Shown here piece after piece: positions 51,510 to 55,773 of a stretch of DNA of 64,000 bases. Source of the stretch: an uncultured Acidobacteriota bacterium. Its GTDB lineage: Bacteria; Acidobacteriota; Thermoanaerobaculia; Multivoradales; UBA5704. The notes beneath the pieces were generated by a model. The model did no database searches. It was not told where the DNA came from and saw nothing but the letters and a program-made list of their open reading frames with translations. Location of the stretch: NCBI GenBank assembly GCA_963770895.1, contig CAVYRF010000002.1, positions 1,920,001 through 1,984,000 of the forward strand, in the 5' to 3' direction. The stretch's first letter is position 1; every line of letters starts with the position of its first letter. Made by a program: the position numbers and the translations under genes.

Positions 51510-51689
51510 TCAGCAATACCCCTGGCCACAGAGCGTGGGGCAGGTACAGGTGACGCAGGAGACCGTACAGGCGCAGGTCCTTTCAAACCTGGCCGTGTTG
51601 GCCCCGCCGTTCGCCTGGACGAGATCCGGCGCGCCCAGACCGCGCACCGTATCGCGATTGAGCTGCAGCTTCTTGCGGGTCTTCTTCAC
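51510..51689 (-). CDS. Lanthipeptide-like RiPP precursor 1 (59 aa; absent from ORF track)
   Basis: AGGGAGG RBS, GTG start. MKKTRKKLQLNRDTVRGLGAPDLVQANGG|ANTARFERTCACTVSCVTCTCPTLCGQGYC*. Confidence 0.85.
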   Translation of the reverse strand: MKKTRKKLQLNRDTVRGLGAPDLVQANGGANTARFERTCACTVSCVTCTCPTLCGQGYC

Positions 51690-52064
51690 ATCGCCTCCCT
51701 TGCTAGACCTCGTTCGACGTCGTTGTCAAACGAGGCGCCGCCCGGCAGCGACGCCGCATCCGGCCTGAAGAGCTGCCGGGCCGGCGTCACCAGGGGCCAT
51801 GCCCTGCTCGCCCCCGCATTAACATGCGCACTTGAGCGACAAGAAGTGACATCATCTGCCCGACGGTCAAACCGGTCGCCTGCGCCTGAGGCAGCACCAG
51901 GCGGGAGCCCTGTTTCAAAACGGCGGCACCGGCCGCGATTGCCGGCGGGCTGTCGTCGCTGGGGGCCATCTGCCCCAGCGGGGCGCAGCGGGCTTGCACG
52001 CCCTCAGCAAGCCCGCCACCATGGCGGGCGAGCGCTCAGGGTCATCCTTCGCACGAACCCGCCG

Positions 52065-52772
52065 ATGACCCGAGCCGAGAAAGCGCGCCGCATCTTAGCG
52101 ATCCTCGACGCCCTCTACCCCGAGGTCGCGATCCCCTTACAGCATGCCGATCCCTTCACGCTGCTCGTCGCCGTCGTGCTCTCGGCGCAGACGACCGACA
52201 AGCTGGTCAACGAGGTGACGCCGGCGCTCTTCGCCCGCGCCGCGACACCGCAGGCGATGGCCGCTCTGCCGGTCGAGGAGATCGCGCGGCTCATCCGCCG
52301 CATCGGGCTCACGGCTATGAAGGCGAAGCACTTGAAGCGTCTCTCCGAGATCCTGGTCGCGGAGCATGGCGGCGAGGTGCCGCAGACGTTCGCCGCCCTC
52401 GAAGCGCTCCCCGGCGTCGGCCACAAGACCGCCTCCGTCGTCCTGAACCAGGCCTTCGGTCTCGCCACCTTCGCCGTCGACACCCACATCCATCGCCTCG
52501 CCGCGCGCTGGGGCCTGTCCTCGGGCAGGAACGTGGTGGAGACCGAGCGCGACCTGAAGCGCCTCTTCCCCGAGGACGCCTGGGGCCGCGCGCACCTCGA
52601 GATCATCTACTTCGGCCGCGAATACTGCCCCGCCCTCCGCCACGATCTCGACGCCTGCCCAATCTGCTCCTGGGCCGCGTCTAAAAAACGCAAGGAGGCG
52701 GAGCGGAAGAGGAACCGCGGTCTAGCCCGGCGGCCCGCCCCTAGTGCCCCGAGTCAGAAATTCACACCATAA
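52065..52772 (+). CDS. nth: Endonuclease III
   Basis: PFTLLVAVVLSAQTTDK.VN, HhH LPGVGHKTA, AVDTHIHR, GREYC. Confidence 0.93.
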   Translation: MTRAEKARRILAILDALYPEVAIPLQHADPFTLLVAVVLSAQTTDKLVNEVTPALFARAATPQAMAALPVEEIARLIRRIGLTAMKAKHLKRLSEILVAEHGGEVPQTFAALEALPGVGHKTASVVLNQAFGLATFAVDTHIHRLAARWGLSSGRNVVETERDLKRLFPEDAWGRAHLEIIYFGREYCPALRHDLDACPICSWAASKKRKEAERKRNRGLARRPAPSAPSQKFTP

Positions 52773-52907
52773 TTCGGCGGCCCCCCACGCCCCTGGCGGC
52801 GTTGCGCCTCCTCGACATAGGTTCGACTATGCCTGCGGCGGCGCGCCTGGCCAGGAGCGCGGATGACTCGCCGACTTATGCCGCTAATTTCTGACTCGGG
52901 ACACTGG
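52741..52907. mobile_element. MITE/REPIN-like palindromic element (~167 bp)
   Basis: Terminal inverted repeats AGTGCCCCGAGTCAGAAATT (52743-52762) and AATTTCTGACTCGGGACACT (52886-52905), 19/20 match; internal imperfect hairpin. Confidence 0.75.
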
Positions 52908-53078
52908 CGATTTACGGCGGCTGTCGGCTGCTGGGCGAAATCGACCCTGCTGCTTACCCGAAGCTGAGGAGCGGGCCGGCGGGCAGGGCCAAGTTTTCGC
53001 CTTGAATTGGTGCACCCCCATCAGGCAGGGCGCGCCATACGGCGGGGAGCGCCGGGCGGATTGATATCATTGCCGCCC

Positions 53079-53609
53079 ATGGAGGGTGCTGCTCCGGAGA
53101 TCGAGTTCGACACCGCGGCCGCCTCCGATGCGCCAGCCCTCGCCGCCTTGCACGGGGCGATCGCCGACGACCTCACCGCCCGCTGTGGCAGGGGCCACTG
53201 GTCGTTGCGCGCGAGCGAGAGGGGGGTCCTCCTGGCGCTGCGCACCGCGCGGGTCCGCGTCGCCCGTCGCGGCGGTGCGATCTGCGCCACCTACGCGCTC
53301 GTCAGCAAGAAGCCGTGGGCGATCGACATCCGCTTCTTCACCGCGTGCGCCCGCGCCCTCTACCTCGTCAACATGGCGGTCGATCCTGCCCACCAGCGCC
53401 GGGGCCTCGGCCGTCTGTGCTTGGCCGATGCGAAAGCTGTGGCGGTGGACGTCGCGGCGTCGGCCAGGGGCCGGGTCGGCGCCATCCGGCTGGACACCTA
53501 CGACGGCGCCGCCGGCGCGGCAGGCTTCTACGCCAAGGCCGGCCTGCGCGAGGTCGGCCGGGTCGTCTACCGGCAGACGCCGCTGGTCTATTTCGAGCTG
53601 CTGCTCTGA
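53079..53609 (+). CDS. GNAT acetyltransferase
   Basis: MAVDPAHQRRGLGR, IRLDTYD..GAAGFYAKAG. Confidence 0.9.
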   Translation: MEGAAPEIEFDTAAASDAPALAALHGAIADDLTARCGRGHWSLRASERGVLLALRTARVRVARRGGAICATYALVSKKPWAIDIRFFTACARALYLVNMAVDPAHQRRGLGRLCLADAKAVAVDVAASARGRVGAIRLDTYDGAAGAAGFYAKAGLREVGRVVYRQTPLVYFELLL

Positions 53610-53765
53610 TCCAACTTGCGCGACGCCCGTTTATGGGCTCGCCAGCGGCCTTTTTCCTCAGCCGCGAGCCTGTGGGGCGATGAGGGAGCTTGCGTGAACC
53701 GGCTGCGCCCCCCGGCGGCGGGCCAGGATGGAACGACCGCTGCCTCGCAGTCGGGGCGACGCGAA

Positions 53766-54583
53766 CTACCCGAATTCAACATCCGTCGGATGATTTTGAC
53801 GCACGACCGTATTGCGATGCACCGACACGAGGGCGGCGCCACCCTCGACAAAGATGCCGCCGCCGCGCCCGCACGGACTGCCGTTGCCAACGATGACACT
53901 ACCACCGAGCTGGACGCCGATCGGTGCGTTGAAATAGATGCCAGCTCCTGCGCACCAAGCAGCGCGCAGGGTATTGTCCGTCACGCGGCTGCGCCACATT
54001 CGCAATTTGCTGCGCTCGCACCAGATCCCACCTCCACGGGCACCGGCCCCAGAATAAACTTCGTTGGCCTGGACGGTGCCGCCGGCAATTTCCACCTGGC
54101 AGTTCTGAAAGAAGAGACCGCCGCCGCCGCCGTGCCGCCGTTCACCACGTTTCCCACGATGGTGGTCTTCTGGATTCGAACGCTTGAATTTCGGCAATAC
54201 ATGCCGGCGCCGAAGAGTTCGTCAGCACCCTCGCCGATACGGTTACCAGCCACGATGGAGTCCTGAAGGCTGAGCGACGAGTTCATCACCCAAAGGCCCC
54301 GGTTGCATGCATTCGAACGGATTTCGACGCCGCTCAGATGAAGGCTCGACCGCTCCACGCAAAGTACCGCCAACCCACCGTCGCCACTGATGGTGACGCC
54401 CCGCCTGGTTAGCAAGGCGCTCTGAATTACAACGTCTTGCTTATCGCGGATGCTCAGGCTCTCTGCATACACCTCAGGCGCCACAACGATGGTGGTGCGA
54501 CCCCTCGCCGCATCGATCGCAGCCTGAATCGTCAGGAACTGCTGTGGGACAAGGAACACCTCGTGTGCAACGGTCGCCGCCAT
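53766..54583 (-). pseudogene. Right-handed beta-helix (pectin-lyase-like) protein, frameshifted
   Basis: VP.QF.TIQAAIDAA..VAP..Y.E in one frame; GGGLF, GGGIW, GGGIF repeats continue in another frame after the GCC run near 54120-54140. Confidence 0.75.
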
Positions 54584-54589
54584 CGGTCG

Positions 54590-55066
54590 CTAGATGCCAG
54601 GACGCTGAACCGCCCCATCGCCGGTGAGAATGCGACGCGCATAGTCGATCTGGCCGAGATGCCAGTTCAGGTGTCCGTAGAGGTGGACGAGAAATGCCTG
54701 CGTCGAAAGGGCCCTTTCGAGCACCACTTGCGGGTACTCGCTCTCCATCTCGGCCGAGGAAAGCCCTTCCAGAACACCAGGAATGAGGGTCGTCAGCTCC
54801 GCAATCCGCGCCCCCAGCTCCGCCCTGCCAATACCCGTTGAGCTGAACTCCATTTCGCGCTGCCGGCTGTACGGCACCTTGCCCAGCTGGCGGCCGATAT
54901 ACTCCCTCAGGTTCCCTTCCAGGTGAAGCACAAGGTTCCCCGGCGAATTGGCGATTCCGGGAAGCCTCTGCCACAGCACCTGGTCATCAGGGAAAGCCTT
55001 GACCTGCTCATAGAGCATGGCGAGGTCGCGCCGAAACAACACCGCAAGGTCTCGCGTGAAGCTCAT
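54590..55066 (-). CDS. DinB/DUF1572-family protein
   Basis: NSPGNLVLHLEGNL..YIG, Y.R.RE.EF, HLYGHLNWHLGQIDY.RR. Confidence 0.88.
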   Translation of the reverse strand: MSFTRDLAVLFRRDLAMLYEQVKAFPDDQVLWQRLPGIANSPGNLVLHLEGNLREYIGRQLGKVPYSRQREMEFSSTGIGRAELGARIAELTTLIPGVLEGLSSAEMESEYPQVVLERALSTQAFLVHLYGHLNWHLGQIDYARRILTGDGAVQRPGI

Positions 55067-55283
55067 GGCAGTTTGAACCGGCCGATAACGCTGCCGTGCT
55101 TGAGGATAGCAGTGTAGGTTCTGGCGGGCATTCGTAGCCTCCGACTCGATCTTAGCACCGGGTGCCAGCGAGGTGCTGACCAGCCAGAAACGAGCCGAAA
55201 ACGCCGTCTCGCCCGGCCCGCACTCGTCACCGGCCGAGAGGGGCGTCTCAGCCGGTGACTCGATGGTTGGAGTAAAGCGGCGG

Positions 55284-55463
55284 TCAGCCGTTGGCGATGG
55301 AGCAGACGTCCTGAGACCAGGTGGTACAGCCGAAGACGCGCTCGGTGGTATAGCAGGCCCACGTTGCGAGCGGGGCGCCGGCGGCAGCGCGCGTGAGCTC
55401 TTGCGGGGTGAGGCGGCGCAGGGATTCACGATGCAGCGGAAGCTTCTGGAGCTGGGTTTTCAT
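55284..55463 (-). CDS. Lanthipeptide-like RiPP precursor 2 (59 aa)
   Basis: MKTQLQKLPLHRESLRRLTPQELTRAAAG|APLATWACYTTERVFGCTTWSQDVCSIANG*; leader matches precursor 1. Confidence 0.75.
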   Translation of the reverse strand: MKTQLQKLPLHRESLRRLTPQELTRAAAGAPLATWACYTTERVFGCTTWSQDVCSIANG

Positions 55464-55773
55464 GAGAGTGGTCTTTCTGGCCTCTGGCCGTTGGTGACGA
55501 GGAGCCGGAACCGCAAGGCGCGTACCATCCCCCGGCGCCTTTCGCCTCCGGGTATAAAACCTTTCGTTTCCAAGAGCTTGGCGTTGTAGAGCGGCCTCCA
55601 GGCATGGATCGGGGTTGAGGTGGAAATGCCAGAGATGAGGCGGCTTCGCCAGAGGCTTCGCTGAGCAGGCCCACGATCCGATACATTTGGACGTAAGTTC
55701 GGTGCCATCGCACGGGTGAAGTTGCGGCATGTGGCTTGCGGTTCAGGGGCGGTGCCGAAACGGATGGAGGAGC

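Follow-up and report, generated by a model that had tools for sequence, protein, structure and literature searches.

A scattered family of candidate class I-type lanthipeptide precursors with one leader and hypervariable cores in an acidobacterial genome

What is encoded by two very small open reading frames (ORFs) of identical length, with similar N-termini, dissimilar C-termini and no modifying enzyme next to them? The two ORFs in question lie 3.6 kb apart in a stretch of 64,000 nucleotides (the window) of contig CAVYRF010000002.1 from an uncultured Acidobacteriota bacterium; the window corresponds to G000:C2:1920001-1984000, where G000 is the genome under study (8.16 Mb, 70.7% GC, three contigs). 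An earlier note, made from the nucleotide sequence of the window, took them for members of a prochlorosin-like combinatorial library, i.e., many scattered precursor genes served by one remote synthetase, and regarded the whole as the best candidate there for an undescribed system. Our analysis suggests that the two ORFs are probably real genes of a family of about 97 class I-type lanthipeptide precursors, which share one leader, differ in hypervariable cores and are matured in trans by LanB and LanC.

Two precursor genes and their genome-wide family

Both ORFs are present on the minus strand as the earlier note had described them, each with 59 codons before the stop, divisible into a 29-residue leader and a 30-residue core, and with leaders of a common type (Table 1). 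The leader of precursor 1 conforms, as judged by eye, to the LxLx(K/R)x5L plus Gly-Gly motif found in passages of PMC7268733 (see below), and both peptides have the build of a LanA, that is, an N-terminal leader followed by a C-terminal core with Ser/Thr and Cys. The ATG codon of precursor 2 sits within a longer open frame (55284-55730).

The scan that the earlier note had proposed, in which leader-bearing small ORFs of the genome are counted against lanB, lanC and lanM loci, returned many of the former and few synthetases. A loose regular expression for the leader gave 34 matches in the six-frame translation, all of them in short ORFs that have a Cys/Thr-rich tail and end 36-71 residues past the match. 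A hidden Markov model (HMM) made from this set found 82 segments at E<1e-3, and iteration settled at 97. The resulting leader HMM recognizes 97 ORFs at E<1e-3 and 101 at E<0.1 in the genome, and the same model run against the reversed six-frame translation recognizes 0 and 1, respectively, so that the resemblance of the leaders is far beyond chance. An independent search with a 22-row leader alignment (A1) gave at least 82 matches among the best 150 of 510 candidates scored. The 97 members occupy 87 loci, 79 of them singletons, on all three contigs. The possibility, considered in the earlier note, that only two copies exist and that no cognate enzyme is present is thereby excluded, as LanB and LanC are both encoded in the genome.

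The family has the marks of protein-coding genes. We could parse 96 of the 97 members, one being dropped for want of the motif expression; ATG serves as the start codon in 88 of these 96, and there is an information peak of Shine-Dalgarno type at positions -13 to -7, with AAGGAG found upstream of 36 members. GC content by codon position is 0.53/0.53/0.83, compared to 0.73/0.54/0.90 in 857 long ORFs, and all 97 frames stay open until a stop within approximately 50 residues of the leader. No position-specific upstream signal other than the Shine-Dalgarno sequence was seen across the family.

The consensus leader, MKKxxKKLxLxRETLRxLxxxxLxxAAGG, has a median length of 29 residues and is strongly conserved at the Glu (90/96), the Thr (87/96) and the second Leu of the motif (89/96). 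The position of the motif Lys is taken by Arg in 74 of the 96 members and by Lys in 11; in most members the leader ends with GG or AG. The core, with a median length of 24.5 residues, is rich in Cys (16.3%), Thr (15.2%) and Ser (8.4%; Thr and Ser together 23.6%), and Ser plus Thr equal or exceed Cys in 95 of the 96 cores. The leaders are nearly free of Cys (16 among 2854 residues). Mean pairwise identity is 38.5% between leaders and 21.7% between cores, compared to 19.9% for shuffled cores; only one pair of cores is more than 60% identical. The leaders of precursors 1 and 2 are 38% identical and their cores, in a forced global alignment, 30% identical, the latter value being near the family mean and the shuffled mean; the two cores are unrelated, as the earlier note had claimed.

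A sub-group with an 'ETLLPL' variant of the leader has His-rich cores with 0-2 Cys (four members, Table 1), and such peptides cannot be ordinary lanthipeptides. Two members of this sub-group are found 96-97 bp from stand-alone LanC-like genes.

The leader and the enzymes of class I lanthipeptide synthesis

Passages of Walker et al. (PMC7268733) report an LxLxKx5L motif and a Gly-Gly end in the leaders that Bacteroidetes LanAs of class I carry, often associated with a C39 protease, and state that leader motifs are not common to different lanthipeptide classes. The search described there was confined to seven genes around a LanC, so that scattered copies would have escaped it.

Clusters in which the same leader stands directly beside class I enzymes are found at four loci in three genomes (G025, G027 and G030) of the order, outside the family of G000, each with one to six precursor peptides next to LanC and LanB. 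Over more than 1100 residues, the LanB proteins of these clusters have 47-50% identity to the only full-length LanB of G000, and their LanC proteins are 42-47% identical to the LanC that adjoins it; this LanC is the best G000 match for four of the five cluster LanCs. Two of the four clusters begin with a transporter of the ATP-binding cassette (ABC) type with a C39 peptidase domain, and the orthologous transporter of G000 is 58-59% identical to them. The clustering with LanB/LanC that is typical of LanA genes is, then, absent from G000 and present for homologous peptides in the three sister-family genomes. Made on the level of sequence, these comparisons tie the leader evolutionarily to an orthologous set of LanB, LanC and C39 transporter.

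Public databases contain further homologs (583 matches at E<=1e-3 among 1015 candidates), most of which are annotated as 'hypothetical protein', and some as 'class I lanthipeptide [Thermoanaerobaculia bacterium]'. The names of these homologs, which refer to Thermoanaerobaculia or Acidobacteriota, as well as the 56 large ADOP-type permeases encoded in G000, fit the earlier suggestion of a putative acidobacterium. No Pfam family matches the peptides in the Pfam version searched, which did not include PF28317; precomputed matches to PF28317 exist for some of the public homologs. No match to a Nif11 or NHLP model was found among NCBIfam and Pfam models.

Among relatives, where 150 candidates were scored per genome and leader counts are lower bounds, the leader was detected in 20 of 24 other genomes of the same taxonomic family, 18 of them with at least 16-48 copies and the other two with at least one and at least seven. 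The highest count is that of G000, and at least 41 copies were counted in a genome belonging to a second family of the order. When 250 genomes were sampled evenly across the phylum (best 31 or fewer candidates each), 10 of 251 genomes, G000 included, had a match at E<=1e-5, and more than seven matches were seen only in G000, in one member of its family and in one member of its order. The presence of LanB follows that of the leader: among 40 relatives compared, all 20 with at least seven leader matches have a PF04738 (LanB) match, which is a single piece of more than 470 bits in 16 of them and is split in two more, and only one of the 16 relatives that lack leader matches carries a high-scoring LanB. 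Since these genomes are kin and not independent, the co-occurrence amounts to a pattern and does not have the force of a statistical test.

Precursor 1 has full-length relatives, 45-63% identical, in four other genomes of the same taxonomic family, and no full-length relative of precursor 2 was found at E<=1e-6 with a single-protein query of 40 related genomes. Identity of 50% or more to a G000 core is seen in 26 of 106 database homologs from other sources, so at least some of the products are conserved. Alternatively, precursor genes that were duplicated or mobilized could be in decay, most of the copies being relics that no longer give a product. The extreme divergence of the cores would fit, as would the range of copy number within the genus (from 1 to at least 82), the lack of a full-length relative of precursor 2, and the window locus, which is not syntenic in five genomes of the same genus and matches them only by single genes, at 68-74%. 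Nevertheless, decay would hardly leave 97 open frames with mostly ATG starts, a Shine-Dalgarno signal and coding-type third-position GC, or such conservation of the Glu, Thr and Leu positions of the leader; the leader family is retained in 20 of 24 genomes, with several cores conserved across genomes, and the copies show no association with a dispersed palindromic repeat (see below). We consider the relic explanation very unlikely.

Within G000, the nearest LanB, LanC or LanM domain is more than 50 kb away for 77 of the 97 members, and within 5 kb for only five. No leader-bearing ORF of the family HMM set is found within 16 kb of LanB/LanC, and the gaps flanking LanB, when read by eye, contain no short leader-plus-core ORF of another kind. 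For the two window peptides, the nearest LanC-like domain is approximately 732 kb away, the orthologous C39 transporter approximately 995 kb, and the LanB/LanC pair approximately 3.2 Mb along the same contig. The window itself holds no LanB, LanC, LanM or C39 domain, in agreement with the earlier observation that no modifier, protease or transporter stands alongside.

We infer maturation by the single LanB together with LanC or its paralogs, and removal of the leader by an unlinked C39 transporter. The leader would be recognized in trans by the only full-length LanB dehydratase of the genome, which would dehydrate Ser and Thr of the core; the neighboring LanC, and perhaps some of the nine LanC paralogs, would add Cys thiols to give (methyl)lanthionine rings; and the C39-peptidase ABC transporter would cleave after the Gly-Gly or Ala-Gly site and export the peptide.

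The genome also encodes two LanM proteins (DUF4135 plus LanC) and two RamC-like synthetases (RamC_N, kinase and LanC domains), which could take some or all of the members. The peptides would then be LanM substrates, as true prochlorosins are, or else would be split among LanM, RamC-like enzymes and LanB/LanC with no single synthetase. One precursor with nine Cys (C2:4304002-4304220) has a LanM at a distance of 3.5 kb, the two being separated by an ABC transporter, and LanM is found in 16 of the 20 relatives that have at least seven precursor matches. The four remaining relatives, with 7-32 precursor matches, have no DUF4135 match, and these include G018 (100% complete, 26 matches), G022 (94%, 32 matches) and G027 (98%); moreover, the clustered peptides with the same leader in sister families are always beside LanC and LanB, not LanM, and leader motifs, according to the cited passages of PMC7268733, do not cross the classes. 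Substrates of LanM, or of a mixture of synthetases, are therefore an unlikely account of the family.

Several other observations, together with the LanM and RamC-like enzymes and the LanM-proximal precursor just mentioned, weigh against maturation by LanB and LanC. Four precursors have a stand-alone LanC-like gene at a distance of 96-316 bp. The curated model of the class I leader, NF038153 (lant_leader_L1a, cut-off 22 bits), points to class I in that it matches 15 of 22 members tested at E<=1 (best E=7.6e-4), but does so in every case below its cut-off; the values for precursors 1 and 2 are, respectively, E=0.005 with 16.9 bits and E=0.23 with 11.6 bits. Four of the 96 cores have 0-1 Cys and therefore cannot be typical lanthipeptides. 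No intact high-scoring LanB was found in G005, which has at least 44 leader matches (the assembly is fragmented and 84% complete), or in G024, which has at least 24 and in which the gene is in pieces; conversely, G002 has a high-scoring LanB and at least one leader match only. Structure prediction, in which LanB (residues 1-800) was paired with the N-terminal 45 residues of precursor 2, supports LanB weakly, with a score of 0.50 and 0.00 for the best of three controls. Of 80 solved complexes, 58 reach the mark used for such scores, as do 2 of 110 mismatched pairs, and the scores at or below 0.60 that reach it belong to only seven of the 80 solved complexes and to both passing mismatches. Contact agreement between runs was 60% or more, and pLDDT (predicted local distance difference test) of the partner was 46, 46 and 51. 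The structure of a LanB-leader complex (NisB-NisA) has been solved, so a pass may reflect likeness to it.

As to the LanB-like gene of G024, it is found in five pieces across frames, and is either a pseudogene or the result of an assembly error.

ADOP-type permeases (MacB_PCD plus FtsX) are enriched next to the precursors: 6 of the 87 loci have one within 500 bp, compared to 0.9 expected, and none of 2000 simulations reached six. These permeases could be exporters or immunity pumps. They also bear on another explanation, in which the peptides are bacteriocin-like or signaling peptides of the double-glycine type, unmodified or disulfide-bonded, and cleaved and exported by a C39 transporter or by ADOP/MacB-type permeases with no lanthionine chemistry involved. 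Besides the enrichment, this explanation would account for the GG or AG end of most leaders in a genome with nine C39 matches, for Cys-rich cores that could form disulfides, and for the scarcity of enzymes near most precursors. It would not account for cores that are rich in Thr and Ser as well as in Cys, for the clustering of the same leader with LanC and LanB in sister families, or for the retention of a LanB ortholog in most genomes that bear the family, and we regard it as quite unlikely. The reading that we favor, class I-type precursors matured in trans by LanB and LanC, remains probable.

More tentatively, and with a confidence that stops a little short of probable, we propose that the arrangement extends throughout a family of Thermoanaerobaculia-like Acidobacteriota from soil. 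One LanB, a set of LanC paralogs and one unlinked C39 exporter would there mature dozens to about a hundred scattered precursors per genome, with cores turning over fast between species, and adjacent ADOP/MacB-type permeases would perhaps serve as dedicated exporters or immunity pumps. In that case the lanthipeptide repertoire per genome would be the largest known to us, and there would be first natural evidence that a glutamyl-tRNA-dependent LanB can be as tolerant of its substrates as ProcM.

Neighborhoods of the precursor and enzyme genes

The 3.6 kb between the two precursors contain a gene of the HhH-GPD (endonuclease III-like) type, one for a GNAT acetyltransferase and two further ORFs that match no Pfam family. 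On the strand of precursor 1, and 525 bp downstream of it, begins a gene for a nonribosomal peptide synthetase (NRPS) of 6794 residues. NRPS-like frames with a minimum of 900 residues number 79 in G000 and total approximately 1.04 Mb, or approximately 13% of the genome (some frames overlap), and nine precursors genome-wide have NRPS neighbors. Linkage of precursors with NRPS genes found no convincing support: three loci were found within 500 bp, compared to 0.92 expected (p=0.08), and six within 3 kb, compared to 3.3 expected (p=0.11).

Between the HhH-GPD and GNAT genes there is a palindromic repeat of approximately 170 bp, the ends of which are inverted repeats (CCCCGAGTCAGAAATT...). Its RNA fold has an energy of -97.5 kcal/mol; it has about 50 matching places in G000, and many matches at 84-89%, on both strands, within the genus. 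By its sequence it looks like a miniature inverted-repeat transposable element or a repetitive extragenic palindromic element. Dispersal of the precursors by this repeat was not supported, with two copies within 2 kb and 2.2 expected, i.e., no enrichment.

Upstream of precursor 2, at a distance of 64 nt, there is a sequence resembling the -24/-12 elements of sigma-54 promoters, TGGTACGCGCCTTGC; sigma-54 activators adjoin three other precursor loci. A sigma-54 promoter shared by the family was not supported: one site with two or fewer mismatches was found, compared to 0.74 in shuffled sequences, which is the level of chance.

Directly upstream of LanB there is an ORF of 366 codons, the only candidate that the reading of the LanB flanks turned up; its product begins in the manner of a signal peptide and has a long tail rich in Gly and Asn that contains Cys. 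Elsewhere on the contig, a protein of 925 residues with Lant_dehydr_N as its only domain, and thus lacking the elimination domain, abuts a large NRPS-like frame; it may be an enzyme of the 'small LanB' type, unrelated to the precursor family.

Table 1. Positions of the features discussed. Numbers with no prefix are window positions; C1, C2 and C3 denote contigs, of the genome under study unless another genome is named.
Feature	Position	Strand	Remarks
Precursor gene 1	51510..51689	-	59 aa + stop, GTG start; family HMM E=3.5e-11
Leader of precursor 1, MKKTRKKLQLNRDTVRGLGAPDLVQANGG	51603..51689	-	29 aa, Gly-Gly end; boundary set by the HMM's GG column
Core of precursor 1	51513..51602	-	30 aa, 7 Cys and 7 Ser/Thr (residues counted)
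Shine-Dalgarno-like AGGGAGG	51694..51700	-	4 nt 5' of the GTG of precursor 1; sequence reading
Precursor gene 2	55284..55463	-	59 aa + stop, ATG start; family HMM E=3.0e-14
Leader of precursor 2, MKTQLQKLPLHRESLRRLTPQELTRAAAG	55377..55463	-	29 aa, Ala-Gly end; HMM alignment
Core of precursor 2	55287..55376	-	30 aa, 3 Cys and 7 Ser/Thr (residues counted)
Full-length LanB	C2:5180050-5183583		1 copy; Lant_dehydr_N 550 bits, Lant_dehydr_C 236 bits; convergent with LanC
LanC adjoining LanB	C2:5178405-5180015
Orthologous C39-peptidase ABC transporter	~C2:2970253-2972460		alone with a LanC paralog at 2.97 Mb
C39 matches in genome			9
LanB N-domain-only protein			1 copy
Lone LanB C-domain protein			1 copy
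LanM (DUF4135+LanC)			2 copies
RamC_N-kinase-LanC (RamC-like synthetase)			2 copies
Stand-alone LanC-like gene			9 copies
MacB_PCD+FtsX permeases adjoining precursors	C2:76496-78994, C2:5660236-5662734, C1:985610-988171, C2:3877433-3879901		large, duplicated; and others
'ETLLPL' sub-group members	C2:2709098-2709301, C1:1579906-1580106, C1:652841-653143, C2:5020187-5020498
366-aa ORF upstream of LanB	C2:5183790-5184890	-	L038 5790-6890
925-aa Lant_dehydr_N-only protein	C2:4507910-4510687	+
NRPS-like frame abutting the 925-aa protein	C2:4494669-4507922
6794-aa NRPS gene	30600-50984	-
Palindromic repeat	52741-52909
Sigma-54-like element	55513-55527	-
LanB-like gene in pieces	G024:C3:1392860-1394854

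Comparison with known systems

The example usually given of combinatorial biosynthesis in nature is that of the prochlorosins, which belong to class II. What we probably have here is their class I counterpart, in which one leader and one enzyme set yield about a hundred different products, matured in trans. If this is true, the split LanB/LanC machinery also serves a large and fast-evolving library of substrates, and about 100 natural substrates per genome become available for engineering a tolerant LanB/LanC pair. A blind spot of cluster-based genome mining would be exposed as well: the ORFs are distant from any enzyme and do not reach the cut-off of the curated leader model, so that nearly all would go unnoticed in standard pipelines. 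An ecological question also arises, namely, why a soil acidobacterium with approximately 1 Mb of NRPS-like genes should keep a peptide library too.

The proposal of the earlier note survives in modified form. Its prochlorosin-like library stands with respect to scattered precursors, one leader and hypervariable cores, and does not stand with respect to the enzymes, since those implicated are of class I and not LanM. Its one remote synthetase is the best-supported reading and is inferred only. As for its novelty, scale and scatter would deserve the word 'undescribed', and we found no publication on scattered class I precursor libraries or on this acidobacterial family (most subscription journals were outside the coverage of the search); the leader type, on the other hand, is in print, at least in the cited passages of PMC7268733, and is modeled by NF038153.

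The prochlorosins of marine picocyanobacteria, with their synthetase ProcM, are similar to the present family in having one leader, hypervariable cores, a cleavage site of the double-glycine type and precursors far from the synthetase. Excerpts from the literature mention 29 prochlorosin precursors (PMC12328550), many of which are distant from their LanM (PMC7268733). The differences are that the enzymes linked to the leader here are a separate LanB and LanC and not a fused LanM; that the leader is of the L1a, or LxLxKx5L, type and not Nif11; that the host is a soil acidobacterium; and that approximately 97 copies are found in one genome, in which the transporter, too, is unlinked from the enzymes. 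Judged by these sequence features, the family fails to qualify as prochlorosins, as it lacks the defining Nif11 leader and its cognate enzymes are probably of class I and not LanM.

The class I LanAs of Bacteroidetes (pinensin-type, NF038153), so far as described in the passages cited, resemble the G000 family in their leader motif, in its Gly-Gly end and in being associated with C39 and LanB/LanC. They differ in that the G000 leaders mostly have Arg in place of the motif Lys and that the members tested fall below the NF038153 cut-off; in addition, the described cases cluster with their enzymes, whereas the G000 members are scattered. The classical transporter-LanA(n)-LanC-LanB clusters of the sister families (G027, G030 and G025) share the leader family and have orthologous LanB, LanC and transporter proteins. 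There, however, one to six precursors stand beside the enzymes, with tandem copies that have related cores, whereas G000 shows no linkage among precursors, LanB/LanC pair and transporter, and no relatedness among the cores.

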